From NCBI GenBank assembly GCA_963664705.1, contig OY761556.1:5664001-5728000 (forward strand): a stretch of 64,000 nucleotides of DNA, read 5' to 3'. This DNA comes from Acidobacteriota bacterium. Its GTDB lineage: Bacteria; Acidobacteriota; UBA6911. Each line of letters begins with the position of its first letter. Positions within the stretch are counted from its first letter, which is position 1. Shown in pieces: positions 6,141 through 26,228 of the stretch. The translations under genes were made by a program, and so were the position numbers. The notes under the pieces were generated by a model. That model was not told the DNA's origin. It worked only from the letters and a program-made list of their open reading frames with translations, and ran no database searches.

Positions 6141-6338
6141 ATGCAGAAGGTTTTCATTTTGCATTGTACCGGTTCGATTTCTGCTTCAAGATATGGGGGT
6201 AAAATATCAAATTACATATTCCCGAGAGTTGGTATTCGCGACGTAATTTGCACGGGTCAGCAGACCATTTGAGAAATCGACCGATCTCTCAAATGGTCTT
6301 GGCTATGGTAGAAAAGAGCGATACTGCTGCAGGCCTGT

Positions 6339-6869
6339 TCAATTTGACTGCGAGCCTTCGCTTGAAATAAGGCACTTTTCGTTCTGTCGTGATTTACCCT
6401 TTCTGTTGACCTTGTCCGATGAGTGGTTCTCGCGCGAAAATAGTTTTCCCAGCAAGGTGCTTTCAAATGAGGAGAAAAGCCGTTCAGAGAAACCGAAAAG
6501 CAGCGCGAGACTCAAAATCACCAGCAGATAAAGAGTCGAAGAACCATCGGGCGTGTTGAAGTTCTTTATAATGGCTCCGATAGACTTCGGCTGCCCATCG
6601 AATGTGAAATTGAAACTGATGGTACCTGAGGCCAGAAAGCCGAAGCCGATCATCGATGCGAGCGCTCCCGTGACAACTCTCCCAAAGATACCAAGCATCG
6701 TTGTCACATTTTCCCCATAATCCATTACGTGTGGGAACTTCAGAAGCACACTGACGCATGCCCCGCAAACTCCGGCTACAAGGAACCCGGGGATCAGGTG
6801 ATTTCGATTAAGCAGCATGACGGAGGCCACCAGACTGCATATGGCGATGGCCGAAGATATAGATTTCAA
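6339..6869 (-). pseudogene. Multi-TM membrane protein, probably 5'-disrupted
   Basis: Hydrophobic helices ending LLFGFSERLF; TTG start shortly after an in-frame stop; IS remnant just upstream. Confidence 0.5.
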
Positions 6870-6948
6870 TATTAATAGCTGCGGTTAGCCCAATCGACAT
6901 AACCTTCCCTGGAATCATGCTCTTCCAAAATACATTCATAGAGATTCC

Positions 6949-7311
6949 TGTGCTCCGCAATAAATACATCCTGCCGTTCCCGGAACGGGTAGGCGACGCT
7001 AGTATGTATTAGCGCGCAAAGGAATTATGTGACATCCTACGGGGCCCATGGACCTGCTCACAACGCTGACACACTTTCTTACGGTATCGGTTCTTCTGCT
7101 TGTGGACATCCTCCGTTTTTGGGCTTTGTCCGCCCGATCAGGCGCAAGCTTAAGAGCTGAAAATCTCTTTCTTCGAAAGCAACTGGCACTCTATGAAGAG
7201 CGGAAGATAAAGCCGCGGCGAGCGAATGACAGTACCCGGCTCGTTTTGGTGCTGCTGTCGAGATTGTTTGACAGCAGGGGGTTTAATTTTAGGATAGCGT
7301 TGCTAGATTGA
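6949..7311 (+). mobile_element. Truncated rve-family IS remnant (left end plus transposase N-terminus 7048-7311)
   Basis: End TGTGCTCCGCAATAA resembles TGTGCCTTGCCAAAA at 18186; LRAENLFLRKQLAL matches LALENLALRQQLAI of the intact transposase. Confidence 0.7.
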
Positions 7312-7561
7312 CACGAGTTTTTGGAATAACTCACCGGATTATCGAAAATCCAATTTGCTATGATTAGGAGAAGAGATACCAAGATAGGTGACATCGCATA
7401 ACTAATATGAGATATGGAAGCTCAAAATCCCGAGTGGCACATCCAGGCGAATCTTGGCTCATATTTCCTTCGCAACATATCCCAATAGAATCCAAGAAAC
7501 GATTGGGCGGCTGCCATATCCGTTGTAAAGAGCATATCGTAATTGAAATTTCGATCCTTGT

Positions 7562-7738
7562 TCACCGGTGCCTATATCGAGCCGCCATCTTGCATATCGA
7601 TAGCGCCAGAAGGGTAAGAGAAATGGTTACGAAACATAAAACAGCATCCTTTGGACCGGCAATCCATTCGCAAAAGAGGTAAAGGCATAGCGCGAGAAAC
7701 TGCAGTTGAACGACTCGAATGACTACTTTGAGTAACAT
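7562..7738 (-). CDS. Small (58 aa) two-TM membrane protein, copy 1
   Basis: GGAGG RBS; paralogue at 21051-21227 keeps protein similarity and stop position where the DNA has diverged. Confidence 0.6.
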   Translation of the reverse strand: MLLKVVIRVVQLQFLALCLYLFCEWIAGPKDAVLCFVTISLTLLALSICKMAARYRHR

Positions 7739-7888
7739 GCGCTTCGTACCTCCATGGTTCGGGCTGCTCAATCTGCTACAAATAGTTTTTTGTAGCAGAT
7801 GTGAAAAGCGATCGCATCCAAGTCAGATGCGGCTTGTAGCGGTGTAGCGGATCTTTCCAGGGGTGCGGAAGGTCCCCCCTATGGCACC

Positions 7889-9103
7889 CTAAGATGCTAC
7901 AGCCTGCTTTCCCGAAATTATTGCGGTTAAGCGTTTGGCCCAAGCCTCCAAGGCCTCTTTCTTCTCCGCATCGTAACTGTGCCGGTCATAGACGGCGGTA
8001 ATATCCCTCTCGACATGATTCAGGATTTTTTTGACTGTAAGGCGTGGAATTCCCATTCCCGTCATCAGACTGGCGGCGGTGCGCCGGAAGTCATGACCAA
8101 CAAATTTGATCTTTGTGGCTCTTTGGATCCGCTCCAGTGCTTTCTGTGGATTGCTTATGTGCGTGTCGCCTTTAGGACTAGGAAAAACAAACCGCGAGTA
8201 CTCGTCCTTTCCTGCAATTGATCTCATTTCTTTAATAATGGATAGCGCTGGCTCACTGAGGGGAACCCGATGAGATAAGCCGTTCTTCGTTTTTGCTCCG
8301 GGGATTGTCCACCACCCGGAGTCAGTGTCAATTTCATCCCATTCTATGCCCATGACCTCAGCTCCTCGCTGAGCGGTCAGGAGTCTCAATTTCATGGTCC
8401 CGGCAGTAATAGCCTTTATCTTTAGATGTGATTCGTTTGTATCTTTCCTGTCGGCTTCTATGGCATCCCAAATGATCTTGATTTCATCTTCTGACAAAAC
8501 TCTGTCCCGCTGGTGCTCTTTTCCGGGTGCAGGTATCAAGTAGACTGGATTACTTTCGACAATGTCGGTGGTGATGGCCCAGTTGAAGATTTTTCGCAGA
8601 AGAGCCCGGATACGATTGGCCATTATTGGCGCAGTTAAGCTTTTACGTTCCAACAAGGCACGAACGTCTTTCCGGGTGATATCCTTGGCATACTGCCTGC
8701 CGAATTCCGGGATGAGGTCCTTTTTAATGACCCGTTCATCCTCCTGCCAGCTTTTCTTTTGGGTTTTGGCATGGCGCTCAATATATTCCAGGGCAACCTG
8801 TCTAAAGGTTAGTGCATGCCGTTCTTCCTGTTTCTCGGTAGCTGGATCCTGTCCGAGTTCTGCATTTCTGAGGGCTTTTGTAGCTTCGTTTCGTGCCTTG
8901 GCTAGACTCAGTAATGGGTAAGTGCCCAGTTTCATACGACGCAGGCGATCGCCGTGGCGATACATAACTCCAAAGCTCTTTTTCCCGTCTTGTGAGACAC
9001 GCAGGAAGAAGCCTGAAAGTGCTTTGTCGAAGTAGTCGACCTGCTTCCCAGGAACACCTTCCAGGAACTTAATTTTGGCGGCTGTGAATTTGATGGAGGG
9101 CAT
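7889..9103 (-). CDS. Tyrosine recombinase/integrase, P4/IntA-like with arm-binding domain, copy 1
   Basis: LTAQRGAEV (R), TKNG (K), HDFRRT, LNH, VYDRHSY (Y); N-terminal arm-binding domain; adjacent to a tRNA fragment. Confidence 0.95.
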   Translation of the reverse strand: MPSIKFTAAKIKFLEGVPGKQVDYFDKALSGFFLRVSQDGKKSFGVMYRHGDRLRRMKLGTYPLLSLAKARNEATKALRNAELGQDPATEKQEERHALTFRQVALEYIERHAKTQKKSWQEDERVIKKDLIPEFGRQYAKDITRKDVRALLERKSLTAPIMANRIRALLRKIFNWAITTDIVESNPVYLIPAPGKEHQRDRVLSEDEIKIIWDAIEADRKDTNESHLKIKAITAGTMKLRLLTAQRGAEVMGIEWDEIDTDSGWWTIPGAKTKNGLSHRVPLSEPALSIIKEMRSIAGKDEYSRFVFPSPKGDTHISNPQKALERIQRATKIKFVGHDFRRTAASLMTGMGIPRLTVKKILNHVERDITAVYDRHSYDAEKKEALEAWAKRLTAIISGKQAVAS

Positions 9104-9126
9104 GGATTATCTCCCTTGATTTTCAA

Positions 9127-9191
9127 AAAGGTAACACAAAGGTAACAAAATATCCATGACTGTAGTGAAACGTAGTGAACCGTAGTGAAAC
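9127..9191 (+). promoter_or_regulatory. Putative integrase arm-type sites (AAAGGTAAC x2) and 3x10-bp tandem repeat GTAGTGAA(A/C)C
   Basis: Direct repeats between integrase start and att core; duplicated at 22616-22680; AAAGGTAAC x2 recurs at 9382-9401. Confidence 0.6.
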
Positions 9192-9299
9192 AACAAAATG
9201 TGATTATAATCAGTATCTATGCGGTGATAGTGCGGGAATAGGTTGTTTCACTGTTGTTCAGGACGTTTCTGTAAGTGTTGACAGGAGAGAAACCGAATT

Positions 9300-9345
9300 A
9301 CTGGCAGTCAGGAGGTCACGAGTTCGATCCTCGTCAGCTCCACCA
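9300..9345 (+). tRNA. 3' half of tRNA-Ala(GGC), attachment-site core (not a functional gene)
   Basis: Anticodon loop CTGGCAG, TCAGG stem strand, T-arm ACGAG-TTCGATC-CTCGT, AGCTCCACCA end; no 5' half upstream. Confidence 0.88.
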
Positions 9346-9778
9346 ATAGAATCAACAACTTACATCCTTTCCGCAAATTCCAAAGGTAACAAAAAGGTAA
9401 CAGCTGCAACAATAATTCACCTAAGGAGGTCACAGCTTTCTCTTGGATAGCCTCTGCAAAGTCAGGCAATCGTGCAACTATCACCGGCCTCCTTTGTTTC
9501 CTGCCTCCTCAGGAATTCAGACTGAAAATTGCGTCATACCGAATGCAAAGGAATGACGCTAGTAGCTTCGGTTGCTCTATCCTCACATCGCAAGGCGCAC
9601 AGAATTTCTAGTCCAGGGCTTTAGGCTCGTCGAGGTGCTTGTAGCCTTCTTTTTCGGCATATGGTTCGGCGGAAGAGGCTTTATGTGCTCCGGGAGCTTT
9701 CTGCAGGATCCTGGGCTCCGTAGGATTTGTTGATAATGTATCGCATCTCGTCACAAAGGTGCTCCAGCGGAAGCCCGA

Positions 9779-10615
9779 CTAGTAATTTTGTTTCTCGAGG
9801 AATGATTCAAGCAGATGATTGAACTCCGATGGTTTTTCCATCATCAGGAAATGGCCGGTTCCGGGAATGCGTGCATAGGTCAAATTGGGGAAACGCTGCT
9901 TCATTTCATCAGGATTGACCGACATTAGCGGATTGTCGGCATAGATGCCTAAAACGGGCATTTTAATAATGGCCTGTTTCCAAATGCCGGGATTCCTGAC
10001 TGCATTCATCGCTTCGACCGCAGCGATTGGCGACGTTCCCAACATCCTCGACAAAATATTCTGTCGCATTACATCAGTTGTAGCTGACGAAAACATATCC
10101 CGAATCATACCTTCGCGGATCCGCAATCCCGCTGGGCTGGAGAATTGTCGGACTGTGTAGGTAGGCGCCTTTTGATTCCAGGGGGATGTTGTTAAGCCTT
10201 CGACAAATACCAGGGCCGCCACATGTTGCGGATACAGGCATGCATATTGAAGAATTACCGCCGTGCCCATGCTGTGCCCAATCAGGATCATCCGGTTTGC
10301 TCTGACGTCGGATCGGACTGCTTCCACGGCGCGAGCAAATAAATCCATGGATAATCTGCCGCTCTTGGGCAACGGGGTTGGCCCGTGGCCTGGTAAATCC
10401 ATCGTGACAACTTGATAACGCTTGGATAGCTCGGGCACCTGAGATTGCCATGATGTCGCATCGCAGGTCCAGCCGTGTACCAGTAAAACCGTTTTGTATC
10501 CATTTCCGGTGACAGTGAAGTGGATTGGTATTCCGTCTACCGTGGCGGCGAAAACTGATGTGGGCAGCATTGAGCAGACCAGGACCATCCAAAGCAGGTT
10601 ATATCCAATCTTCAT
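9779..10615 (-). CDS. Secreted alpha/beta hydrolase
   Basis: Signal peptide, LVHGW, GHSMG nucleophile elbow, GTGHFLMME. Confidence 0.9.
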   Translation of the reverse strand: MKIGYNLLWMVLVCSMLPTSVFAATVDGIPIHFTVTGNGYKTVLLVHGWTCDATSWQSQVPELSKRYQVVTMDLPGHGPTPLPKSGRLSMDLFARAVEAVRSDVRANRMILIGHSMGTAVILQYACLYPQHVAALVFVEGLTTSPWNQKAPTYTVRQFSSPAGLRIREGMIRDMFSSATTDVMRQNILSRMLGTSPIAAVEAMNAVRNPGIWKQAIIKMPVLGIYADNPLMSVNPDEMKQRFPNLTYARIPGTGHFLMMEKPSEFNHLLESFLEKQNY

Positions 10616-11271
10616 ATCCTTCCTCGGATTGCTTTGTTCAATAGAGGATAAGGGTCTCGATAACCATCCTATCATATCGCGCATATTGCAGAATTGGGCT
10701 CATCCTCAGACTAAGTATAACCTCGACGGATTTTGTCTTCCCGACCTATTTCGTAGGTCAATTCTTCCGTGGCATCAGGCCGGAAGCGGAAAGCTCAATG
10801 AACGGAGAGGGATACTGCTGGAAAACTGTCCTCGGAAAATTCAGTCCTTTTGCATCCCGCCTTTAGGATGTGAACGGGACGGAGAAGGGAAAACCGGAAT
10901 CCTACTGCATGACTGGGCAAATGAGGCTGGCCGACGCACGGGTTAGTCGGACCACTAACTATCCGCTGCAGGACACTTGCGGGGTGATCCTATTAATAGC
11001 GGCATCTGAATCCTGCGATTGTCGGTTGGATGGAAAACATGCATAGTGCAGAGGATCAGGCTTAATTGGGCAGTCTCCATGTTTTCAGTAATAATAGAGA
11101 AATGGCAAAATAGCCTATATTGCTTTGCATTATTTCTCCCATTGAACTAAGGTAGCCGCACCCCTACCTTTTATATATGCGCTTTGGTAAAGGCGCCGTT
11201 CAGAACAACCATATTTCGAGCAGAAGAGCGTAATTTCCTGGGCTCTATGTTCCTGTTTTTAGTTGCTAAAT

Positions 11272-14200
11272 ATGCCAGCCAGAAAAAAGACCAGCAAAGC
11301 GTTAAAAGATAGCAAGAATCGGTATCGTGCCTATTTTAATCTCCCGACAGCAGGGATTGCGATCACCTCTCCTGACAAAGGATGGGTGGACGTGAATTCG
11401 GCCCTTTGTGAGATGCTTGGATACACACAGGAGGAATTGAGTTGCCGGACCTGGAGTGAGCTGACGTATCCAGAGGATCTGGAAGCAGACGTTCTCCGGT
11501 TTGAAAGAGTGCTGACAGGCGAAATCGACAGTTACAGCCTTGAAAAGCGCTTTATCCGCAAGGATCAGACAATTATCTGGGTTGACCTGTCCGTGCATTG
11601 TGTGCGCTCGGAAACCGGAGCCGTCAGCTATTTCATTGCTTTGCTAAAAGATATCACCGGCCGCAAGACAGCTGAGCAGGCTCTCAGAGAAAACGAAGCA
11701 CAACTCCGCGGGATCATCGATAATCTTCAGGATGCATATTTCCGGGCGGATCTATCCGGGCATCTCACCGTAGTTAGTCCGTCTGCAGTGCAGATGTTCC
11801 GCTATGAATCGGTCGAGGAAATGATTGGTCTGGCTGCCAAAACATTATATGCCCGGCAGGAGGACCGAAAATCGCTGCTCGAGGAGGTGCGTAGGTGTAA
11901 GCGCGTAAATGACTGGGTGAGTGTAGCGAAAAGAAAGGATGGCTCAAAATTCTGGGTCTCCATGAGCGTCCAGATTTACTGCGACAGCTCTGGCAAAGTT
12001 TCCGGCAGCGAAGGAATTGTTCGTGACATCACGGAACGCAAGGTTGCAGAGGAGACGCTTCGTTTAAATGAGGAGCGGTTGAGCCTGGCACAGACAGTTG
12101 CACATGTCGGTACGTTCAATTGGGACCTAATCACGGGGGTAAATACTTGGACATCAGAGCTGGAGGCAATGTATGGATTGCAGCCTGGCAGTTTTGCTCA
12201 AACGCAGCCTGCCTGGGAAAACCTTGTGCATCCGGAAGACCGTGAGCAGGCTGTAAAAAGGGTTAATAGCGCATTTGAGACTGGTCATCCAACAGAGGGT
12301 GAATGGCGGGTGATCTGGCCGGACCAGAGTATCCACTGGATTGCCGGCCGTTGGCAGGTCCTCAAAGACGAATCGGGAAAGCCGATCCGGATGGTTGGCG
12401 TAAATATCGACATGACAGAACGCAAACGGATCGATGAGGAAACGGCGCGATTAGCCTCCTTTCCGATCCTGAATCCAAATCCGATCATAGAAGCGGATTT
12501 GGAAGGTAACGTGCTATATGCAAACCCTTGTGCCCAAAGGCTATTTCCGAAACTTCAGGTGCTTGGTCAAAAGCATCCGTATCTGATGGGCTGGACGAAC
12601 CTGCAAAACATTAATGCCAAGGACGGACGAGCTGTTGCGCGGGATGTTATGGTGACTGACCGCTGGTATAATCAGACAATTCACTTTCTTCGGGATTCTC
12701 AAAGAATCCGAATTTATGGTTTGGATATTACCGAGCGGAAGATCGCTGAACATGCTCTCCGCGAAAGCGAAGAACGTTTCCGCAACATGGCCGACAGCTC
12801 GCCTGTGATGATCTGGGTGACGGAACCGGAAGGCGAGTGCTCCTTCCTGAGCAAATCCTGGGAGGAATTTACCGGGCAGACGCTCTCCGAAGGATTGGGT
12901 TTCGGCTGGGTTCAAGCAGTACATCCGGAAGACCGTCCGAATGTCGAATTGGCTTTCCGGCGCGGCAACGACGCACACGGCCATTACCAGATTGAATATC
13001 GGCTAAAACGCAAGAACGGACTCTATGGCTGGGTAATCGACACTGCCGCACCACGGTTCGATGCTCAGAAAACATTTCTGGGATACGTCGGTTCAGTGGT
13101 CAATATCACTGAGCGCAAGCAGAAAGAAGAAGAGCTATTCAATTCCCGCCAGTATCTGCAAACACTGATGAACGCAATTCCGGTAGGCATTGCAATCTCT
13201 GCAGATACAACCTGCAATAAAATAACAGGCAATCCGGCGATGCTTGCGCAGTTTGAGGTCGCACCGGGTGCCAATATATCCGCATCAGCTACAGATCCTG
13301 CCGAGGCAGGATCCTCCATACGATACTTTAAAAATGGACGCGAACTCACAGGCGGCGAGTTGCCGATGCAGCGGGCCATTGCAGAAAATCGCGACATCCC
13401 GCGAATGGAACTGGATATCGAATTGCCGAGCGGCCGCCGTATTTCAACTATTGCCTCCGGCGTACCTATAAGAGACCAGGGTGGAAATATCATAGGTGCC
13501 GTTGCCGTGAGCATGGATATCACCGAGCGAAAGCAGGCAGAAGATATTATCCGCCGAGCTAATGAGGAACTCGAAGCACGAGTGCAGGAGAGAACAAGCG
13601 AACTCGCTGTTCGCGCTAATCAACTCCGCGCACTGGCGGGTGAACTGACCATCTCAGAACAACGCGAACGAAAGCGCCTGGCAAATCTTCTCCATGATCA
13701 CCTTCAACAATTGCTCGTGGGGGCCAAGTATCGCCTGACGGTGCTAAGCAATAGAGTTGCGGATGATGGGACAAAACTCGCTGCAAAGGAAATTGAAGCT
13801 CTGATTGATGAAGCCATCAGGTCTTCACGATCTCTTACGGCGGAATTGAGCCCTCCAATTCTGCATGATGCGGGCTTGACTGCCGGGCTTGAATGGCTTG
13901 GCAGGCGAGTGGCTGATACGCATGGACTATTCGTGTATCTGAAAGCAGAACAAATCGGACCGCTGCCAGAAGATTTGACCATCGTTCTTTTTGAGGCAGT
14001 ACGCGAACTATTATTCAATGTGACAAAACATGCCGACACAAATTCAGCTGCAGTCATATTGCGTCAGATTGACAACTTCCTGGAGATCGCTATCACTGAC
14101 CAAGGCGTAGGCTTTGACCCGAATGATATACCGCCGGCAGGCGGCACGGGAAGTGGCTTTGGACTTTTCAGCCTCCGAGAGCGGTTGGAGTTGTTCGGAG

Positions 14201-14742
14201 GGAAACTGATGATCGACAGTGCTCCAGGACGAGGCAGCCGATTTATGATCGCAGTACCAATAACTAAGGTCGAATCAAAACCATCCGGGTTGGCGGAGTT
14301 GCCGGGAGAAATCCCTCCCAAGCTTATGCCTATACGCCAGTCAGAGAAGAAAATTCGAGTCCTGCTAGCCGATGATCATGGAGTGGTTCGGCAAGGAATT
14401 GCAAACCTGCTTAGCGATGAAGAGGACTTGGAGGTTGTCGGCGCAGCGATAGACGGCCAAGATGCGGTTAACCTGGCTGCCAAGTTAGTGCCCGATGTGA
14501 TCCTGATGGATATGAATATGCCGAGATTGAATGGAGTTGAAGCAACGCGCATTATCCACAGAGATTACTCCAACATTTGCATCATCGGTTTATCCATGTT
14601 CGAAGAAGCGGAAAAAGCTCAGGCGATGCGCGATGCCGGAGCGGTGAATTACTTGACTAAGAGCGGGCCAGCGGAGGAACTGATTAGCGCAATTAGAGCA
14701 GTAGTTGGTCGCTCTCAAAAAGCGTTTGCGGCAAAAAGTTAG
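11272..14742 (+). CDS. Cytoplasmic multi-PAS hybrid histidine kinase (HisKA_3/NarX type) with NarL-type receiver
   Basis: About six PAS/PAC; ERKRLANLLHDHLQQ; ELLFNVTKHA; DQGVGF; GFGLFSLRER; VLLADDH..LMDMNMP. Confidence 0.92.
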   Translation: MPARKKTSKALKDSKNRYRAYFNLPTAGIAITSPDKGWVDVNSALCEMLGYTQEELSCRTWSELTYPEDLEADVLRFERVLTGEIDSYSLEKRFIRKDQTIIWVDLSVHCVRSETGAVSYFIALLKDITGRKTAEQALRENEAQLRGIIDNLQDAYFRADLSGHLTVVSPSAVQMFRYESVEEMIGLAAKTLYARQEDRKSLLEEVRRCKRVNDWVSVAKRKDGSKFWVSMSVQIYCDSSGKVSGSEGIVRDITERKVAEETLRLNEERLSLAQTVAHVGTFNWDLITGVNTWTSELEAMYGLQPGSFAQTQPAWENLVHPEDREQAVKRVNSAFETGHPTEGEWRVIWPDQSIHWIAGRWQVLKDESGKPIRMVGVNIDMTERKRIDEETARLASFPILNPNPIIEADLEGNVLYANPCAQRLFPKLQVLGQKHPYLMGWTNLQNINAKDGRAVARDVMVTDRWYNQTIHFLRDSQRIRIYGLDITERKIAEHALRESEERFRNMADSSPVMIWVTEPEGECSFLSKSWEEFTGQTLSEGLGFGWVQAVHPEDRPNVELAFRRGNDAHGHYQIEYRLKRKNGLYGWVIDTAAPRFDAQKTFLGYVGSVVNITERKQKEEELFNSRQYLQTLMNAIPVGIAISADTTCNKITGNPAMLAQFEVAPGANISASATDPAEAGSSIRYFKNGRELTGGELPMQRAIAENRDIPRMELDIELPSGRRISTIASGVPIRDQGGNIIGAVAVSMDITERKQAEDIIRRANEELEARVQERTSELAVRANQLRALAGELTISEQRERKRLANLLHDHLQQLLVGAKYRLTVLSNRVADDGTKLAAKEIEALIDEAIRSSRSLTAELSPPILHDAGLTAGLEWLGRRVADTHGLFVYLKAEQIGPLPEDLTIVLFEAVRELLFNVTKHADTNSAAVILRQIDNFLEIAITDQGVGFDPNDIPPAGGTGSGFGLFSLRERLELFGGKLMIDSAPGRGSRFMIAVPITKVESKPSGLAELPGEIPPKLMPIRQSEKKIRVLLADDHGVVRQGIANLLSDEEDLEVVGAAIDGQDAVNLAAKLVPDVILMDMNMPRLNGVEATRIIHRDYSNICIIGLSMFEEAEKAQAMRDAGAVNYLTKSGPAEELISAIRAVVGRSQKAFAAKS

Positions 14743-14820
14743 ATATCACAAAAGGCCGAATGGACTTTTTGACATTTTATTCAGACTGACACGACTGGAT
14801 CTATTCAGTGTCTAACAATT

Positions 14821-15291
14821 TCAGAGTGGTTGATCACGCACAACTGTCTCATGTGCGGCTATCTTCCATTCTCCATTGATCTTTTTCAGCACGATTAAAA
14901 TGCGACCGTCGACTGTTACGCCGGCATTGGTTGCCTCGTAGATGCCTGCACAATAGGCAAGATCCCCGCTATGATAGACCGTCAGAGGTCTTATAAAATC
15001 GATATGGCCTCCAGCCCGGATGCCGCGCTCCCAATAAGATTGAATCGCCTGTCTCCCATTGGCCAAGATGTGTGCTGATAGATAGTAGCCGTCTTCCGTA
15101 TACAATTCAGCAACCGCGGACGCATTTCCATTGTTGTATAACCTGACCCATTCTTCCGGGATCTGTCGTATGGCTATATCATCAGGAATAATCTGTTTTT
15201 GACTGGGTTGAGGATTCGGCGCGGTAGCCTGGGGTACGGCAATCCTCGAGGCCAACATCAACACAACAGCGAGCTCAAGTATCAGTTTCAT
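14821..15291 (-). CDS. Exported NTF2/SnoaL-like (DUF4440) protein
   Basis: Signal peptide; YNNGNASAVAELYTED, GRQAIQSYW, GDLAY, WKIAAH. Confidence 0.8.
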   Translation of the reverse strand: MKLILELAVVLMLASRIAVPQATAPNPQPSQKQIIPDDIAIRQIPEEWVRLYNNGNASAVAELYTEDGYYLSAHILANGRQAIQSYWERGIRAGGHIDFIRPLTVYHSGDLAYCAGIYEATNAGVTVDGRILIVLKKINGEWKIAAHETVVRDQPL

Positions 15292-15408
15292 GGCTTGAAC
15301 GATAACATAGAAGAGATTGACGCTTCACCTTCGATAAAATAGCGTTTGTCTGCTTTTGCAAAGTATGAATAATGTGAACAGGCTTCTTTTGTGAAACGGA
15401 CTGACTCC

Positions 15409-18180
15409 ATGGCCGACAAAGATCGCAATAAGACTGCATTGCCTGAGAGGATTGACCAAATAGAAACTCAGAACGGGTCTGATCGGACTAAAATTGATAT
15501 TTACAATCAACTTGCATCCGACGATACACTCGGCCGGAATCGTTATGAGATGCTATTGCAGTTGAGCCGCGACGTTATCCTGTTCATCCGGCGCAGTGAT
15601 ACTCGGATTGTTGACTTCAACAGCGCAGCCCTTAAAGCCTACGGCTATTCGCGAGATGAACTATTGTCTCTGAACATTGGCGATTTGCGGGCCCCGCAAA
15701 CAATTTCACTGACTCCAGCGCAGTTGAATCAAGCCGATCAATCAGGAATTCTATTCGAGACAATCCACAGACGTAAAGATGGCACTCTGTTCCCGGTGGA
15801 GGTCAGCTCAGTAGGAACTGAAATTGAAAGCGAGCGCATACTCATCAGTATAGTCAGGGACATTACCGCGCGCAAAAAGACGCAGGGAGAGCTTGCAGAA
15901 GCAAATCGTCTATTAAGGATGACGATTGATGCCATTCCCGATCTGATGTTTGAGGTTGACGCGGATGGACGATTTTATAGCTACCATATGCTTTCGGGTG
16001 ACACCTTGTATGCCCCTCCAGAGGTTTTTCTTGGGAAAACAGTACAGGATGTACTACCCGCAGAACCCGCCAGAATCATAATGACAGCTCTTGCCCAGGC
16101 TGTGGAAAAGGGCAGACATCGAGGAGCTACATACTCATTGGCTTTGCCGGGTGGACAATACTGGTTTGAACTGTCCATATCGGCAACGCCGGGAGAAAAG
16201 TTGCAGAGTTCACGATATATTGTTCTGGCCCGCAATATTACTGAACGAAAGAGAACCGAGGAATCACTGAGGGAAAATGGTCGGCTGCTATCGGAATCAC
16301 AGAGGATCGCGCACCTGGGAAATTGGGAACTGGATATATGTACCAATGAGGTAACCTGGTCTGATGAGACGTACCGGATTTTCGAAACCGATCCGAAAAC
16401 AAGGATTTCCTACGAAACATATGTCGATGCTATTCACCCGGATGATCGCGATAGGATAACGGCTGCTTACGCGCGGTCTCTGAAGACGCATGAACCTTAC
16501 GAGATCGGTTATCGAATCCTTTTGCCGGGCGGGCGGATTAAGCATGTGCAGGGACATTCCCAATCCTTCTACAACCCGGAAGGAAAGCCGATCCGCTCCA
16601 TAGGGACGGTACAGGATATCACTGAACGAACGCGATCGGAGGATGCGCTCCGAACCAGTGAACTCAAATATCGTTCGCTGTTCGAGGCTGCCGAGGACGG
16701 AATTATATTGCTGGATTCGACAGGCTTCGTAGATTGCAATGATGCCGGTGCGCGCATGTACGGGATTTCCAAATGGGAAGTGATCGGGAAAGCGCCCACA
16801 GACTTCTGTCCGGAAAATCAGCCTGATGGCCGTCCATCAACAGAAGTGGCTCTGGAAAAAATATCCGCGGCCCTGAAAGGAACCACACAGAAGTTTGATT
16901 GGGTATCTCGGCGCCCCGATGGGACTCTTTTCGATGTCGAGATCACTTTGAGCCGGATTGGTGATCCGGGAAGTACGCTGATGTTGTCGATTGTCCGGGA
17001 CGTTACCGACCGCAGACGGGAATCGGAGAAAAACGCAAGGCTTGCCGCTCAATTGCAACAGGCTCAAAAAATGGAATCGGTGGGCAGGCTTGCAGGTGGA
17101 GTGGCGCATGATTTCAACAATATGCTCGGCGTGATCCTCGGGCACACGGACCTGGCTCTGGAACAGGTTGATCCGGAGGATCCGATTAATGAGGACCTTC
17201 GGGGAATTCAAATGGCAGCCAGAAGATCTGCCGATTTGACTCGGCAACTACTGGCCTTCGCCCGCAAGCAGACCATCGCGCTTCAAATCCTGGACCTTAG
17301 TGAAACCATCACCGGCGCTCTCAACATGCTCCAACGCTTGATCGGCGAAAATATTCAGCTGAAATGGAGTCCGACCGCGGATCTGTGGCCGGTCAAGGCA
17401 GACCCCTCGCAGATTGAGCAGATTTTGACAAATTTATGCGTAAACGCGCGCGATGCAATACAAGATGTCGGCGAAATTGTCCTCACTGCAGGGAATTGCA
17501 TGGTTGATGATCACTATTGCTCGACAAGAGAAGGGTTGACTCCCGGAGAATATGTGCGGCTTGAAATAAGAGACACCGGCGGCGGCATGGAAAAGGAAGT
17601 TCTTGAGCATATATTTGAGCCCTTTTTCACAACCAAGCAAATGGGGAAAGGTACCGGACTTGGGCTTGCGATGGTTTACGGAGCGGTAAGGCAGAACAGC
17701 GGCTTTATCTATGTTGCTAGCGAACTGGGATACGGAACAACTTTCTCTATCTACCTACCCAGGCAGGAGGCCTCTCCAAGGCAACCGGCGGCGGCGAAAA
17801 GGCCCGCCCGGCAAGGCAAGGAGACCGTTCTGCTGGTGGAGGATGAGCCGGCTATATTGAATCTGGCAGCAAGGTTGCTTCGAAAGCAAGGCTACGGAGT
17901 ATTGGCCACTAAAAGCCCGACGGATGCCTTGCGTTTGGCTGCAGAGCATGAAGGAGATATTCATCTGCTCTTAACCGATGTCATCATGCCTGAGATGAAC
18001 GGGCGTGTCCTGGCCGATAATCTGCGAGCCAGATATCCACACATCAAGTGTCTTTTTATGTCCGGATACACGGCTGATGTTGTGGCAAAGCAGGGCATAC
18101 TGGATGAAGATGTTAGCTTCCTTCAGAAACCGTTTTCAGCGGAAGAACTTGCGGACAAAATGGAGCTTGTTCTTGGCTGA
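15409..18180 (+). CDS. Multi-PAS hybrid histidine kinase/response regulator (CckA-like architecture)
   Basis: Four PAS; [15 protein letters not shown]; NLCVNARDA; [14 protein letters not shown]; C-terminal receiver. Confidence 0.93.
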
Positions 18181-18185
18181 TTGCC

Positions 18186-19484
18186 TGTGCCTTGCCAAAA
18201 TTCCAAACTTCGGCGAAATGGCGCCCGGCGGTCTACCGATAAGTTTGGATATCGCAATGGCATGGTGATTTGGATAAGCGCCTATTGGTGTTTGCAACGG
18301 TTGAATTGCGGGCACGAGCGAAAAGAGACCGGTCGATCCGGTTCTTTTTGCAGGGAACAAGATGAATTTCGTACCTATGCAGCACGGCGTCCGTAATGAT
18401 GATGAAGGCCGCCGACCTCAGGAATCTCTATCACTTCAGCAAGTTTTGCATCCTGAATTGGCCGTCGTTCTGGCGCATCCTTATCGAGTGAGAGATGGGT
18501 ACGATATTTATGATAATAATAAAAATACCGTGCCAGGATTTTTCGCAAATGCGATTCCCCGAGAATAATTACGTGATTCAGGCAGTCCCGACGTACGGAT
18601 CCGATTAAGCGTTCGCAGAAAGGATTTTGCCAAGGGCTCCGCGGTGCCGTCATGATTTGCTCGATGCCAATCGCCTGAATCCGTTCTCGAAACTCCTCTC
18701 CATAAATGCTATCTCGATCGCGCAGCAGATACTTCGGTTCCGTCCCATCGGGAAATGCCTGAATCAGCTGCTCCCCAGTCCAGCGCGCTGTCGGATGCTC
18801 CGTCACATTGAAATGCACAATGCGCCGACGATCATGGGCAAGAACGACGAGGACAAACAGGGTTCGAAAGGTGGCCGTGGGAACCACGAAAAAGTCGATG
18901 GAGACCAAGTCCTTGACGTGATTGTTCAGAAAAGTATGCCATGTCTGGGAAGGAGGTTTTCTCCTTTTCGGCATCAATCGAGCGACAGTCGGTTCCGATA
19001 TTTTTATTCCGAGTTTAAGTAATTCCCCGTGGATTCTCGGACTTCCCCAGGTTGAGTTTGCATTGGCCATTTTGCAGACCAACTTGCGGATTTCGTTGTC
19101 TGTTCCCGGCCGACCGGCTCCGCAATGTTTTGAGAGGCGGGTCCAATATAATGCAAATCCTTTCCGATGCCACCGGACGACCGTTTCGGGTTTGACTACG
19201 ATGAGGGAATCTTGCCATCTCTGCCAGACCGAGGAAAGGAATCCCCAGAAAAGCCGATCTCTCCGTCTTAAACGTGCATGGGAACGCTCGCGTTTCAGGA
19301 TTGCCAGCTGTTGCCGCAGCGCCAGATTTTCGAGGGCCAGCTCAGTTCGATTTCTAAACCCGGATTTTAAGAATGAAAACAACAAAGACAGTGCCTCAAT
19401 CATGATTCAGAAGATTCAGAAGCCTGCTTGCTGGTGACGCTAATGTCAATATTTTCAATGCGGGCGGAATTCTGGCAAAGGACA
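18186..19484 (-). mobile_element. IS-like element with TG...CA imperfect terminal inverted repeats
   Basis: TGTGCCTTGCCAAAATTCC (18186) versus GGAATTCTGGCAAAGGACA (ending 19484) flanking an rve transposase; no target duplication seen. Confidence 0.75.
18375..19403 (-). CDS. DDE transposase, integrase core (rve) domain, IS3/IS481-like
   Basis: WGSPRIHGEL, IDFF (D), RDRD (D), PWQNPFCERLIGSVRR (E), GGLHHHY. Confidence 0.9.
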   Translation of the reverse strand: MIEALSLLFSFLKSGFRNRTELALENLALRQQLAILKRERSHARLRRRDRLFWGFLSSVWQRWQDSLIVVKPETVVRWHRKGFALYWTRLSKHCGAGRPGTDNEIRKLVCKMANANSTWGSPRIHGELLKLGIKISEPTVARLMPKRRKPPSQTWHTFLNNHVKDLVSIDFFVVPTATFRTLFVLVVLAHDRRRIVHFNVTEHPTARWTGEQLIQAFPDGTEPKYLLRDRDSIYGEEFRERIQAIGIEQIMTAPRSPWQNPFCERLIGSVRRDCLNHVIILGESHLRKILARYFYYYHKYRTHLSLDKDAPERRPIQDAKLAEVIEIPEVGGLHHHYGRRAA

Positions 19485-19702
19485 GGGCTGCATCACCGCT
19501 ATGATTGGCAGCAAACAGCGTAGCAATCAATTGCAGAGACGCCCAAATTCCTGGAAACGGAACCGCTCTTATCCTCCGCATTATATGCAAAAATCAAAGA
19601 CTTACAAATTTCTCCAGATTCAGGGATTTGGCGTCTTTATAGAATTTTATTCAAGCCTTCCTAATTCCCGTCGATGGCATTATGGCGACACACAAAGCTA
19701 CA

Positions 19703-20938
19703 CTAAACAAAGAACGGAAGTATGGATGATGCGCTGGAGACAACCAATGTTGCATCACCAACCCGGTACCGGGCTTGATAATTGGGCTGTTTGATTACTT
19801 GCAGAGCAAGCGGGCAATTTAGGTGCGGCAGAAAACGTTTGAAATGTGGAGAAGGTTGCGTGTCGTTCTCCTTAACCTCCACCGGCAGCCAGGGCTTCTT
19901 ATCTTTCACAATCAGGAAGTCAATTTCCTGTTTTTCTTTTGTCCTCAAATAAAACAATTCAAACAGGCCTTCTCCTGTATCCGTCCAATAGTGGCATGCC
20001 TTAAGAAGATGGGCCGCAACCAGGTTTTCGAATTTCGCAGCAGGATTGGTGATCTCCGAATAATCCCAGAGATAGAGTTTGCCTTCTCTTTTCAATGAAC
20101 GTGAAATTTTGGAGGTGAAGGGTTTGATCTCAAATGCATAATAGAGTTCAAATAAATACTGCATCCAGCGGCGAATAGTATCGAAACTGACCTCGAGGTC
20201 TTCTCGAAGCGAAGCGCGACTGAAAAGTGATCCGACTCTTTCCGGCAAAAGGGAGACCAATGCCTCAATCTGGCTCAGTTCGGGAATGCGCGATAAATCC
20301 CGCAGATCTTCTCGGATGACTTTCTCTATGCGGCCCCGGCGCCACAAAGTCAATCGCCTTTCTTCGCCGGCTAGAAAAGGCTCGGGGAAGCCTCCCAATC
20401 GAATGAGATCCTCCAACAGGGCCTGATCCCCCTTCCTATGGTGGCTGCTATCCTCCAGTATCCGTCTGCGAACCTGGTCCGGCGGCAATAGGGGATAACT
20501 GCCAACCTCCGCCAAGGTTAGGGGGTGCAGTCTGAAATGATAATAACGGCCCATCAGGCTGTCACTCCCCTTCCGGTAGATGCTCAATCTGGCGCTGCCG
20601 GTTACGAGAATGTCCGCGTGTAGATCCATAGTGTCGTAAACGCCTTTCAGCGTCTGTTTCCACTTCTTGGCTTTGTGAATTTCATCGAGCACCAAGAGAG
20701 GAACCTGCTGGCCGGATTTTTCGATGCGGTCGGATAAGAAGATCGATTTTGGTGACTTTGTCCAGAGACGACGGAATTCTGTCTCGTCCCAATTAAAATA
20801 TGCTCCGATTCTCCGGTCCTTCAGCAGCATTTTTCCAAGCGTTGTCTTGCCGCATTGGCGCGGCCCGGAAACGAATGACATTTTCCGATGTGCAAAGGAA
20901 AGATTTGTAAGTGCGTTTTCGATATACCGATGCAACAT
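19703..20938 (-). CDS. AAA_14 ATPase with C-terminal DUF4143 nuclease-like domain
   Basis: GPRQCGKTT, VLDEIHK, VTGSA, SLMGR, GGFPEP, KLYLWD, EIDF..VEVK. Confidence 0.88.
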   Translation of the reverse strand: MLHRYIENALTNLSFAHRKMSFVSGPRQCGKTTLGKMLLKDRRIGAYFNWDETEFRRLWTKSPKSIFLSDRIEKSGQQVPLLVLDEIHKAKKWKQTLKGVYDTMDLHADILVTGSARLSIYRKGSDSLMGRYYHFRLHPLTLAEVGSYPLLPPDQVRRRILEDSSHHRKGDQALLEDLIRLGGFPEPFLAGEERRLTLWRRGRIEKVIREDLRDLSRIPELSQIEALVSLLPERVGSLFSRASLREDLEVSFDTIRRWMQYLFELYYAFEIKPFTSKISRSLKREGKLYLWDYSEITNPAAKFENLVAAHLLKACHYWTDTGEGLFELFYLRTKEKQEIDFLIVKDKKPWLPVEVKENDTQPSPHFKRFLPHLNCPLALQVIKQPNYQARYRVGDATLVVSSASSILPFFV

Positions 20939-21050
20939 GTGACCATACTACGATGTGTCCGCAGTATGGTCAATATCGAACAGCGTCCAAATTGCGGGTT
21001 CATCGCAGTTTGGTCAAAATAGGTGATGGCTTTTATATCGGGCGCTTCCG

Positions 21051-21227
21051 TCACCGATGCCGGTATCGATTCACCCTTGCTAAAATCGTCCAAATCAGCA
21101 GGACTAAGGAAATAGTTACAAACCACAAAACGGCCTCCTTTGGACCGGCAATCCATTCGCAAAAGAGGTAAAGGCATAGCGCGAGAAACTGCAGTTGAAC
21201 GACTCGAATGACTACTTTGAGTAACAT
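21051..21227 (-). CDS. Small two-TM membrane protein, copy 2
   Basis: Identical N-half and diverged C-half relative to 7562-7738. Confidence 0.6.
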   Translation of the reverse strand: MLLKVVIRVVQLQFLALCLYLFCEWIAGPKEAVLWFVTISLVLLIWTILARVNRYRHR

Positions 21228-21377
21228 GCGCTTCGTACCTCCATGGTTCGGGCTGCTCAATCTGCTACAAATAGTTTTTTGTAGCAGATGTGAAAAGCGA
21301 TCGCATCCAAGTCAGATGCGGCTTGTAGCGGTGTAGCGGATCTTTCCAGGGGTGCGGAAGGTCCCCCCTATGGCACC

Positions 21378-22592
21378 CTAAGATGCTACAGCCTGCTTTC
21401 CCGAAATTATTGCGGTTAAGCGTTTGGCCCAAGCCTCCAAGGCCTCTTTCTTCTCCGCATCGTAACTGTGCCGGTCATAGACGGCGGTAATATCCCTCTC
21501 GACATGATTCAGGATTTTTTTGACTGTAAGGCGTGGAATTCCCATTCCCGTCATCAGACTGGCGGCGGTGCGCCGGAAGTCATGACCAACAAATTTGATC
21601 TTTGTGGCTCTTTGGATCCGCTCCAGTGCTTTCTGTGGATTGCTTATGTGCGTGTCGCCTTTAGGACTAGGAAAAACAAACCGCGAGTACTCGTCCTTTC
21701 CTGCAATTGATCTCATTTCTTTAATAATGGATAGCGCTGGCTCACTGAGGGGAACCCGATGAGATAAGCCGTTCTTCGTTTTTGCTCCGGGGATTGTCCA
21801 CCACCCGGAGTCAGTGTCAATTTCATCCCATTCTATGCCCATGACCTCAGCTCCTCGCTGAGCGGTCAGGAGTCTCAATTTCATGGTCCCGGCAGTAATA
21901 GCCTTTATCTTTAGATGTGATTCGTTTGTATCTTTCCTGTCGGCTTCTATGGCATCCCAAATGATCTTGATTTCATCTTCTGACAAAACTCTGTCCCGCT
22001 GGTGCTCTTTTCCGGGTGCAGGTATCAAGTAGACTGGATTACTTTCGACAATGTCGGTGGTGATGGCCCAGTTGAAGATTTTTCGCAGAAGAGCCCGGAT
22101 ACGATTGGCCATTATTGGCGCAGTTAAGCTTTTACGTTCCAACAAGGCACGAACGTCTTTCCGGGTGATATCCTTGGCATACTGCCTGCCGAATTCCGGG
22201 ATGAGGTCCTTTTTAATGACCCGTTCATCCTCCTGCCAGCTTTTCTTTTGGGTTTTGGCATGGCGCTCAATATATTCCAGGGCAACCTGTCTAAAGGTTA
22301 GTGCATGCCGTTCTTCCTGTTTCTCGGTAGCTGGATCCTGTCCGAGTTCTGCATTTCTGAGGGCTTTTGTAGCTTCGTTTCGTGCCTTGGCTAGACTCAG
22401 TAATGGGTAAGTGCCCAGTTTCATACGACGCAGGCGATCGCCGTGGCGATACATAACTCCAAAGCTCTTTTTCCCGTCTTGTGAGACACGCAGGAAGAAG
22501 CCTGAAAGTGCTTTGTCGAAGTAGTCGACCTGCTTCCCAGGAACACCTTCCAGGAACTTAATTTTGGCGGCTGTGAATTTGATGGAGGGCAT
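21378..22592 (-). CDS. Tyrosine recombinase/integrase, copy 2 (identical protein)
   Basis: 404 aa identical to 7889-9103. Confidence 0.95.
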   Translation of the reverse strand: MPSIKFTAAKIKFLEGVPGKQVDYFDKALSGFFLRVSQDGKKSFGVMYRHGDRLRRMKLGTYPLLSLAKARNEATKALRNAELGQDPATEKQEERHALTFRQVALEYIERHAKTQKKSWQEDERVIKKDLIPEFGRQYAKDITRKDVRALLERKSLTAPIMANRIRALLRKIFNWAITTDIVESNPVYLIPAPGKEHQRDRVLSEDEIKIIWDAIEADRKDTNESHLKIKAITAGTMKLRLLTAQRGAEVMGIEWDEIDTDSGWWTIPGAKTKNGLSHRVPLSEPALSIIKEMRSIAGKDEYSRFVFPSPKGDTHISNPQKALERIQRATKIKFVGHDFRRTAASLMTGMGIPRLTVKKILNHVERDITAVYDRHSYDAEKKEALEAWAKRLTAIISGKQAVAS

Positions 22593-22788
22593 GGATTATC
22601 TCCCTTGATTTTCAAAAAGGTAACACAAAGGTAACAAAATATCCATGACTGTAGTGAAACGTAGTGAACCGTAGTGAAACAACAAAATGTGATTATAATC
22701 AGTATCTATGCGGTGATAGTGCGGGAATAGGTTGTTTCACTGTTGTTCAGGACGTTTCTGTAAGTGTTGACAGGAGAGAAACCGAATT

Positions 22789-22834
22789 ACTGGCAGTCAG
22801 GAGGTCACGAGTTCGATCCTCGTCAGCTCCACCA
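22789..22834 (+). tRNA. 3' half of tRNA-Ala(GGC), second att core
   Basis: Same sequence as 9300-9345. Confidence 0.88.
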
Positions 22835-22977
22835 ATAACCTCTTAAAATACAATCATTTACAATCGGAGAAAAAGAATCAGATAATGCATCTTTCGTTGG
22901 GTGCGCCTGGGGTGCGGATTACTTTTAACGCCGATGTGAATAGATAAGACCTGATTAGTAAAATGGGACATACTGCA

Positions 22978-23025
22978 AACCCAACCAAGAGGGCTCCATT
23001 TAAGGCAGAGCCTCTTGGTTGGGTT
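22978..23025. terminator. Long stem-loop downstream of the minus-strand gene 23063-23269
   Basis: AACCCAACCAAGAGG...CCTCTTGGTTGGGTT, a 15-bp perfect inverted repeat; only a weak U tract. Confidence 0.5.
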
Positions 23026-23062
23026 GGTGAGCCTGAGGTGCCCACTTATTTCTAACCTCCTA

Positions 23063-23269
23063 TTACTCCTCTTCTTTCCACTGGCCGTTTGCAATTGCGT
23101 CTCCAACAGATTGGCCACTGTTCACCTGCAGCTTTAGGACTTCGCCTGTATCCGTATTCTCTATAAGCTCTGTTGTGCCGTATAGTAGCGAGAACGGGAA
23201 AGATAGTGCATTTGCCAACGATTGGCTTGCGTCGGGATCTTCGCCGAGGTGCTTATATTTTTCTGCCAT
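23063..23269 (-). CDS. Small acidic hypothetical protein (68 aa)
   Basis: GGAG RBS, ATG start, downstream hairpin. Confidence 0.65.
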   Translation of the reverse strand: MAEKYKHLGEDPDASQSLANALSFPFSLLYGTTELIENTDTGEVLKLQVNSGQSVGDAIANGQWKEEE

Positions 23270-23460
23270 AGTTTATACTCCAATAAAACCTAAGAGAGAT
23301 CGGAGCTTGTTATACTATTCTCCTCTGCTCTTCTCTCTGGATGGATTGATTACCAGGAACAAACAACCGATTCTCAGAATCGCCTTGTGTTTCCCCGGCC
23401 GCTTTCAAACCAATTTGAATCGATAATGTGCCTGTCGATCCGATTGGCTAGTGGTTAAAA

Positions 23461-23490
23461 CCGAAGCTCCTCAAAAGTGAGGAGCTTCGG
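23461..23490 (-). terminator. Rho-independent terminator
   Basis: CCGAAGCTCCTC-6 nt-GAGGAGCTTCGG followed by TTTT on the minus strand. Confidence 0.75.
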
Positions 23491-23505
23491 CGATCACTTC
23501 TGTGG

Positions 23506-23595
23506 TTAATTGTCTACTTCAGGACTATCAGCGTTGCTGTCCTCACTGTAATCATCAGAAGAAACGGACTCGTCGTCCGCGGAAAAATGGATCAT
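23506..23595 (-). CDS. 29-aa acidic peptide MIHFSADDESVSSDDYSEDSNADSPEVDN (absent from ORF track)
   Basis: GGAGG 8 nt upstream of ATG; terminator 15 nt after the stop; alternative in-frame ATG at 23610. Confidence 0.55.
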   Translation of the reverse strand: MIHFSADDESVSSDDYSEDSNADSPEVDN

Positions 23596-23779
23596 GGTGT
23601 CGTCCTCCATTTAACGAGTGGTGGTAACGCTTCTATGTTGCTTTAATCGGACCCTTCCGTTATCTTGCCCCGAAATGACATCCGACGTGAAAAGGTATAG
23701 CTTGCTTCCGCCCGCGTTCTCAAGGCATGGAAAGGTCATAAAAAGGACAACTTGCACATCGTTTACACGAGGTTAAAAA

Positions 23780-26223: not shown

Positions 26224-26228
26224 ATACA

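Follow-up and report, generated by a model that had tools for sequence, protein, structure and literature searches.

Mobile elements that accumulate in tandem at one chromosomal site have been described in several settings. In the Islander collection, 2,083 of 3,919 islands have their crossover at the anticodon loop of a transfer RNA (tRNA) gene (the 'A' subsite), and 125 tandems of at least two islands and four of at least three were counted (PMC4383910). Related elements of the SXT/R391 type occupy one site in tandem and recombine with each other, and arrays that combine a hybrid integrative and conjugative element (ICE) with its parent have been recovered (PMC2786100). Tandem elements in Frankia are reported to excise both independently and jointly (PMC3218068), and cis-mobilisation has been described for pairs of an ICE and a cis-mobilizable element (CIME) (PMC5704250). 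Here we describe a tandem array from an Acidobacteriota bacterium, analysed from a window of 64,000 bp (G000:C1:5664001-5728000) in which two neighbouring islands, termed unit 1 and unit 2, end in an identical 1.7-kb block that carries the gene for a tyrosine integrase (IntA) and an attachment (att) site. It is proposed, with a probability of roughly 65%, that the blocks are identical because homologous recombination copied the integrase end of one island onto its diverged neighbour, within a stack of at least five islands.

Two identical integrase ends in a stack of tRNA islands

The intact tRNA-Ala(GGC) gene that the preliminary description of the window had predicted to its left was found by an upstream search at G000:C1:5584226-5584301, approximately 79.7 kb away. 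It is trailed by five tRNA 3′ fragments on its own strand (G000:C1 5673300, 5686789, 5738438, 5743871 and 5753487), and the further copies expected outside the window are among them. The five units have sizes of 89,044, 13,489, 51,649, 5,433 and 9,616 bp, and each is bracketed by its own pair of arm repeats, in the order A-A, A-A, B-B, C-C, D-D and finally an A relic. The arm pairs are AAAGGTAAC in units 1 and 2, GGGTGCG in unit 3, TGGGGG(T/C) in unit 4 and TGGTGGCA in unit 5; a sixth left arm of the AAAGGTAAC type follows the last tRNA fragment, and a P-arm relic (79.5% identical) that has neither core nor integrase is found at 5791923-5792048. Full integrases are encoded by units 1, 2, 3 and 5, and unit 4 retains a C-terminal integrase fragment only. 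With four arm-repeat types and three unrelated kinds of full-length integrase, the array does not support the single element family that had been supposed, and the locus is a tandem array of tRNA-targeting tyrosine-integrase islands. In an Rfam scan of window positions 1-30000 the only matches were sub-threshold ones to the transfer-messenger RNA model, on two of the tRNA fragments. Each island would have entered by tyrosine-integrase recombination at the anticodon loop, an event expected to regenerate the tRNA gene and to shift older islands outward; this order is suggested because the complete unit adjoins the tRNA gene and the decayed units lie far from it. Unit 1, which is nearest to the tRNA gene and equipped with AlpA, Rep, relaxase and a type IV secretion system, would be the newest and the autonomous member, and unit 2 a stripped relative.

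Window positions 7647-9348 and 21136-22837 match exactly (1,702 bp, 100% identity, offset 13,489), in agreement with the preliminary description. The left end of the match lies inside a gene kept by both units, an open reading frame (ORF) for a hydrophobic protein of 58 amino acids (aa). None of codons 1-30 differs between the two copies, whilst 22 of the 28 codons from 31 to 58 differ, 11 of them synonymously. Diverged homology continues beyond 7647/21136 for a further 85 bp (53 of 85 bases alike) as far as the shared stop codon, where it ends, and the drop from 100% to approximately 62% identity is sharp; the sequences left of the two copies, where the cargo had been described as unrelated, are thus not wholly so. 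Homologues of the 58-aa ORF were found in seven of 50 other genomes of the family, behind IntA-family genes in G006 and G024 and, at a distance of 2.7 kb, in G010, and the ORF has no match in Pfam, NCBIfam or PHROG. Units 1 and 2 also have left arms of unlike sequence, set at unequal distances from the core (45 versus 36 bp), and are therefore distinct relatives. The recently copied tract begins within a conserved gene and extends as far as the tRNA core, which is the last homologous sequence, and this pattern points to homologous recombination and not to site-specific integration. A RecA-type event between the 58-aa gene and the tRNA core would have made a hybrid of unit 2 or of unit 1, either by gene conversion or by unequal crossover with subsequent deletion of the surplus copy. 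Exchange of the SXT/R391 type has its crossover in sequence common to tandem relatives, and the step after codon 30 is in such a position. The successive integration suggested earlier fits the stack of tRNA-Ala-targeting islands, but it cannot alone explain an identical tract that begins within a gene common to both units.

The stretch is present in five public runs, four of which (X1-X4) come from one sample and the fifth (X5), at low depth, from a second study. In the k-mer contigs of X1-X4 the block forms one contig of 1,683 bp, which has no variant letters and begins precisely at 7647/21136. It is covered about twice as deeply as the adjoining contigs (17.9 against 6.5-8.7 in X1, 14.4 against 3.2-8.4 in X2, 50.8 against 18.8-24.4 in X3 and 47.9 against 22.2-23.2 in X4). 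The depths of unit 1, block, unit 2 and unit 3 are compatible with 1:2:1:1 (8.7/17.9/8.7 in X1 and 18.8/50.8/21.9/24.4 in X3; in X4 47.9 for the block, 23.2 for unit 2 and 22.2 for unit 3), although contig depth is not copy number and was used as a consistency check only. A single contig of 11,847 bp represents unit 2 in X1, X3 and X4, and a single contig of 51,659 bp represents unit 3 in X3 and X4; X5 (share 0.43) yields low-depth pieces of the block, of units 2 and 3 and of the cargo of unit 1. Since independent contigs of four runs give one variant-free block at about twice the depth, with a break at 7647/21136, polishing is ruled out as the source of the identity. The contig joint 22837>9360 is the junction between units 1 and 2 (att1) itself. 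Two other joints, 9364>9125 and 22838>22614, were considered as a circle and rejected, as they represent a tRNA-side attL contig with the common core and arm.

Several observations weigh against recombination between neighbours. Donor and recipient appear indistinguishable, also when outgroup 58-aa proteins are used, and the exchange could have taken place here or in an earlier host. A comparison of related genomes revealed other multi-copy core sites but no second identical block at 36 core sites of 13 relatives (six of these sites having less than 3 kb of upstream sequence), and the nearest parallel is a 93%-identical partial second copy in G010. The 100% matches that did appear at these sites are overlaps between the stretches compared. 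To judge from the stacked relic arms at its left end, the 89-kb unit 1 may have arisen by fusion of several older elements. No k-mer contig spans the block together with both flanks, and the evidence for the tandem order is therefore the assembly, in which the genome is a single contig; X1-X4 represent one sample, possibly the one from which the assembly was made; and no excision product or circle was seen in the k-mer contigs, which break within the 46-bp core and so are unable to reveal them.

A first alternative, which we consider rather unlikely, is that two elements already sharing the block integrated successively, the exchange having occurred earlier, between circles or in another host, or that units 1 and 2 integrated as a composite. 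The same final sequence would result; composite transfer of tandem elements has been described (PMC5704250); and the pieces found in X5 indicate that the combination is not limited to one sample. Homologous recombination would, however, still be required for the break inside the 58-aa gene, and the absence of any difference over 1,702 bp implies a very recent event, which is easiest between neighbours; the closest integrases in the 50 relatives are at most 82% identical. It is highly improbable that the arrangement is an assembly artefact, in which unit 2, as a free circle or as DNA of another strain, was threaded into the chromosome through the common block, or in which polishing equalised two similar copies. 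No contig bridges the block and both flanks, a chromosome without unit 2 plus a one-copy circle would give the same k-mer graph, and the estimated contamination of the assembly is 6.18%. This is countered by the variant-free block with its doubled depth and exact breaks in all four runs, by the equal depth of unit 2 and units 1 and 3, by the fact that unit 2 has no rep gene that would hold a free circle at one copy per cell, and by the genome being a single contig. Finally, the integron-like system originally suggested, in which cargo cassettes would be taken up and rearranged by a single integrase family, has in its favour several cargo units in a row, two with the same integrase, and the arms on both sides of att1. 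It is all but excluded, as IntA has the arm-binding domain PF13356 and no TIGR02249 or PRK15417 match at E ≤ 0.001, the units are not short cassettes but islands of 5.4-89 kb with tRNA fragments as their boundaries, the array has four types of arm and three kinds of full integrase, and unit 1 is of the conjugative type.

Unit 1, unit 2 and their predicted excision

Most of unit 1 lies to the left of the window, and 48 of its proteins there were scanned, leaving aside ORFs across locus borders and the second copy of a recombinase trio. They include a TrwC/MOBF relaxase (NF041492, 197.6 bits against a cut-off of 100), a TrwB-type coupling protein, VirB4-, VirB6-, VirB10- and VirB11-type proteins and a VirB9-type (CagX) protein, all with matches above cut-off (among them PF08751, PF10412, PF19044 and PF03135), alongside ArdC and RadC. 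The rep gene of unit 1 encodes a 732-aa DUF3854-DUF3631 protein (PF12307, 148 bits) that has no PHROG match, and the only AlpA match of the genome, in a whole-genome search, lies directly upstream of this gene on the integrase strand. With IntA and matching att ends, marked by AAAGGTAAC pairs, and with its relaxase, coupling protein and VirB4, unit 1 appears to be ICE-like. Against this, the ORFs at the positions of VirB2, VirB3, VirB5 (partial) and VirB8 have no matching Pfam match, and the completeness of the mating apparatus is therefore unproven. The sequence downstream of trwC, which is kept in three other elements, is a candidate origin of transfer (oriT), and we take it to resemble the R388 nic site. 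Psu, Delta, Sid, Ash and the alpha primase-helicase have no Pfam match among the 48 proteins.

Both copies of IntA have R246, K273, H337, R340, H363 and Y372, and the nearest named integrase records are from metagenome-assembled genomes of Acidobacteriota. The AAAGGTAAC pairs are located at 9127/9138, 9382/9393 and 22616/22627, with none to the right of the second att, which bears out the reported contrast between a first att with pairs on both sides (attP-like) and a second with a pair on the left only (attR-like). The att1 site resembles attP because the right end of one IntA element here meets the left end of another. Excision by IntA is plausible: together with the AlpA protein of unit 1 it could excise unit 1, unit 2 or both jointly (102.5 kb), and a joint circle would move unit 2 by means of the conjugation system of unit 1 (cis-mobilisation). 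An identical unit 2 circle of 13,489 bp would also arise through RecA-mediated recombination between the two 1.7-kb copies.

No gene for replication, relaxase, excisionase or type IV secretion was found among the ORFs of unit 2 that were scanned (seven of more than 140 aa not overlapped by a longer ORF, the 58-aa ORF and four further short ORFs), and whole-genome searches for HTH_17 and AlpA gave no match inside it. When unit 2 was searched for an oriT of the unit 1 type, the candidate region scored 24 against a shuffled mean of 25, and a relaxed oriT motif matches once in the whole array, in unit 1. Unit 2 is not an integrative and mobilizable element (IME) in the strict sense, having no relaxase and no oriT-like match (an unrelated oriT is possible), nor is it a strict CIME, as its integrase is intact, though its att sites and its lack of transfer genes would fit. 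The 'integrase-only cassettes' of the preliminary description are thus reduced to unit 2, unit 1 being an 89-kb element with relaxase, coupling protein, type IV secretion system, AlpA and Rep; the reported lack of replication and transfer genes likewise applies to unit 2 but not to unit 1, which ends in the first copy of the block.

Several further features of the two units were recorded. At the left end of unit 1 (G000:C1:5584300-5585150; L001:2300-3150) there are three pairs of the AAAGGTAAC type and one GGGGCAAC pair, and one relic arm is preceded by a 3′ fragment of tRNA-Arg(ACG), which suggests fused remnants of earlier elements. Nearby, G000:C1:5585384-5602685 holds a defence-type cluster with a dCMP deaminase, a type I restriction-modification (R-M) system, a Prok-E2/ThiF pair, a second ThiF, an IrrE-like peptidase and a helicase. 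Two 3,480-bp copies (99.7% identical; G000:C1:5618114-5621593 and 5622451-5625930) of a multi-recombinase element, probably a recombinase-in-trio (RIT) element, lie inside unit 1. The two PAS kinase genes of unit 1 are bracketed by a 686-bp direct repeat (85.7%; window 6249-6933 and G000:C1:5663180-5663863). A 97-bp non-coding stretch (72% alike; window 9527-9622 and G000:C1:5663925-5664020) is shared by the left end of unit 2 and the region upstream of the unit 1 kinase gene, with no further copy in the genome or in the loci examined.

A repeat triple behind integrase genes and at rep 3′ ends

Behind the stop codon of each IntA gene is a spaced repeat triple, in which TGTAGC(A/G) occurs once and then twice 44 bp further on. 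The same TGTAGCGG-type pattern is found at the 3′ end of the unit 1 rep gene (G000:C1:5637405-5637533), and these three places (the two blocks and the rep 3′ end) are its only occurrences in the 6.9-Mb genome, compared with none in three shuffled genomes. A slightly wider pattern gave 13 matches in 51 genomes of the family and two in a reversed control: nine lie behind IntA-family genes, three at rep 3′ ends and one near neither. As this pattern was drawn from the sequences themselves, the counts are partly circular, and the informative part is that 12 of 13 matches fall at two types of gene. Independently of the pattern, six of 19 stretches downstream of integrase genes align better to rep 3′ ends than any of 100 shuffled sequences (z 6-20). 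Of nine loci whose integrases are at least 57% identical to IntA, seven have the triple, against none of ten with 45-52% identity, and repeats and spacing are kept where the spacers have diverged. The one match near neither type of gene (L089, G064:C14:4634-4691), a triple with converging repeats, has no integrase or rep gene within 1.5 kb. An origin of the triple as the tail of a deleted rep gene was considered and is not supported, since no coding relic of a rep C-terminus was found upstream of nine integrase-side sites; among 16 stretches examined, no rep gene converges on an IntA gene.

DUF3631 is the family of the RepAM initiators (PMC3218068), and the 8-bp repeats to which RepAM binds lie at the 3′ end of the gene that encodes it (PMC2440964); DUF3854, which is Toprim-related, is present in cyanobacterial Rep proteins (PMC10079941). 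Given this precedent and the conservation of the triple beside integrases and rep ends, it is likely that the triple of the block is bound by the family's own DUF3854-DUF3631 Rep protein, a predicted site that would be kept by elements without rep. In G014 a rep gene of 79% identity comes after an arm of the AAAAGGTAAC type located at tRNA-Lys, which places this Rep in the same arm family. What would be new is a second Rep-type repeat set beside the integrase, also in elements without rep; in the available excerpts of the DUF3631/DUF3854 literature, a Rep site beside an integrase is not described.

A helper-satellite family can tentatively be envisaged, although we regard it as doubtful. Complete members such as unit 1 would have AlpA, Rep and conjugation genes, and stripped members (unit 2 and elements in G006, G010, G017, G024 and G063) would keep a functional Rep-binding origin beside the integrase and be replicated or controlled in trans after excision; recombination of the block would then keep integrase, att arm and origin matched to the helper. 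Two findings weigh against a working helper system: G010, G017 and G063 (97, 84 and 95% complete) carry the triple but gave no hit with the Rep query, and unit 2 shows no amplification in the sample. The triple and the site at the rep end may be two cis sites, presumably comparable to ori1 and crr of phage P4; if two such sites were needed, unit 2 alone may not replicate.

Neighbouring units and comparison with known systems

The coordinates of the features in the window are given in Table 1. Unit 3 has a head resembling that of a phage-inducible chromosomal island (PICI), with integrase (27251-28552), excisionase (29121-29399), small terminase (29457-30020) and primase-like (30428-32002) genes, and its defence-type cargo comprises a type I R-M system, GmrSD, an AAA_21 ATPase pair, a DUF4011 helicase-nuclease, a DEAD helicase, a NucS-like protein and a proteasome-fold protein. 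In unit 4 (G000:C1:5738438-5743916; L005) the integrase C-terminal fragment and the arm pair match an element at tRNA-Arg(ACG) near 6708100, whose integrase could, to judge from this match, act on unit 4 in trans; an 80%-identical copy of its Fic gene lies directly behind the IntA homologue in G010. Beyond unit 5, an orphan AAAGGTAAC arm at G000:C1:5761261 is near-identical to the left arm of unit 1 and has no tRNA core, and in the putative sixth unit (L006:6255-8673) a group II intron reverse transcriptase abuts an IS3-type transposase. The core 17-mer is present in at least two copies in 21 of 50 relatives and at least three in 14, many of these genomes being fragmented, and six copies, the highest number, are found in the present genome; the tRNA-Ala core is a family-wide hot spot. 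Among IntA relatives (L009-L015, L055-L064) the layout of gene, arm and core is kept, with targets in tRNA-Ala(GGC), -Lys, -Ile2/Met(CAT), -Arg and -Thr (assigned by eye from anticodon loops and by BLAST), and the arm pairs vary with the integrase clade (AAAGGTAAC, GGGGTTCCA, GGGGTACCA, TTTGGTTCCA and GGGGTAGCA).

Table 1. Positions of units, block components, att sites and cargo genes in the 64,000-bp window
Feature	Position	Strand	Remarks
Unit 1, right-hand 9.3 kb	1..9299		whole unit 89,044 bp, G000:C1:5584256-5673299
Two PAS histidine kinases, unit 1	340-4191, 4224-6140		
58-aa hydrophobic ORF, copy 1	7562..7738	-	left end of identical tract inside, after codon 30
Identical block, copy 1	7647..9348		closes unit 1 on the right; contains the 5′ half of the 58-aa ORF, the repeat triple, the IntA gene, the P arm and the att core
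Spaced repeat triple (TGTAGC.. single, 44 bp, double)	7791..7849	+	behind integrase stop; predicted Rep-binding site
Tyrosine integrase IntA, 404 aa	7889..9103	-	PF00589, PF13356 arm-binding, PF22022; catalytic residues intact
AAAGGTAAC direct-repeat pair, putative integrase arm site (P arm)	9127..9146	+	copy at 22616-22635; also kept upstream of related integrases
Three 10-bp direct repeats GTAGTGAA(A/C)C, predicted excisionase (AlpA) sites	9162..9191	+	copy at 22651-22680
att1 core	9300..9345	+	46-bp 3′ fragment of tRNA-Ala(GGC) from anticodon loop; joins units 1 and 2; an arm pair on either side
Unit 2, 13,489 bp	9300..22788		integrase and cargo
AAAGGTAAC pair, unit 2 left end (P′ arm)	9382..9401	+	36 bp from core (45 bp at unit 1 left end)
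Alpha/beta hydrolase, unit 2 cargo	9779..10684	-	
Multi-PAS hybrid histidine kinase, unit 2 cargo	11263..14742	+	HisKA_3, receiver
DUF4440/SnoaL-like protein, unit 2 cargo	14821..15291	-	
Multi-PAS hybrid histidine kinase, unit 2 cargo	15391..18180	+	
DDE (rve) transposase, unit 2 cargo	18375..19403	-	IS3/IS481-like below cut-off
AAA_14-DUF4143 ATPase, unit 2 cargo	19703..20938	-	
58-aa ORF, copy 2	21051..21227	-	codons 1-30 same as copy 1
Identical block, copy 2	21136..22837		right end of unit 2
Repeat triple, copy 2	21280..21338	+	
IntA, identical second copy	21378..22592	-	intact ORF, 404 aa
att2 core	22789..22834	+	joins units 2 and 3
Most of unit 3 (51,649 bp)	22789..64000		unrelated island, own integrase, defence cargo; ends 10.4 kb right of window, G000:C1:5738437
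GGGTGCG pair, unit 3 left arm	22899..22917	+	recurs before att3

With the tandem islands of Islander the array shares an intact tRNA gene, displaced 3′ fragments in the same orientation, tyrosine integrases, a crossover at the anticodon loop and members that have their own integrase and fragment (PMC4383910). It is longer than usual, extending over 169 kb with five bounded units, four of which have a full integrase, and the relic of a sixth, and it also differs in that two neighbours have an identical integrase end. Islander and TIGER tables could already list the array, and identical-integrase tandem tRNA islands of the present type are not described in the excerpts of PMC12084326. As in SXT/R391 arrays, a hybrid appears to be coupled to its parent in tandem; here, in contrast, the integrase is a different one, the target is the anticodon loop of tRNA-Ala, the conjugation module is of the MOBF/VirB type, and the second partner is 13.5 kb without transfer genes. 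Accretion of an ICE with a CIME or an IME likewise brings a conjugative element into a tandem whose other member is decayed or non-autonomous, with a chimeric internal att and an expectation of joint excision (PMC5704250). Unlike in a CIME, from which the integrase is lost, the integrase of unit 2 is intact, and unlike in an IME, no relaxase or oriT-like site was found in the unit 2 scans.

The RepAM replicons of actinomycete integrative elements, such as pMEA300, also have a DUF3631 protein and multiple repeats at the 3′ end of its own gene, of 8 bp in the case of RepAM (PMC2440964; PMC3218068), whereas here DUF3631 is fused to DUF3854 and a second repeat set lies behind the integrase, also where rep is absent. 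Binding of the repeats by Rep and a hairpin with a pC194-like nick site further characterise replicons of the RepAM type. P4-like satellites and PICIs (PMC10085698) resemble unit 1 in the arm-domain integrase, AlpA, a primase-type replication gene and a single orientation, and tycheposons (10.1101/2020.12.28.424599) are cargo elements stacked at tRNAs, many with little beyond an integrase. What sets the present elements apart from all three is that no Psu, Sid, Delta, capsid or terminase match was found in the scanned proteins of units 1 and 2, and that unit 1 has a conjugation module.

The locus clearly illustrates, in a bacterial family that has received little study, how islands accumulate in nature and recombine with one another: it is a stack of five to six units whose boundaries are readable from arm repeats and whose crossover is fixed to one codon. 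The retargeting of the integrase family among tRNA-Ala, -Lys, -Ile2/Met(CAT), -Arg and -Thr, with mapped arms, would be useful for integrase engineering. Should the triple function as a Rep site, a satellite strategy would be defined in which the origin is kept and the initiator borrowed, and binding by DUF3854-DUF3631 proteins could be tested directly; if it does not, the locus is a good example of known biology. In either case, the array is an unusually long case of the known island stack, and not an integron.

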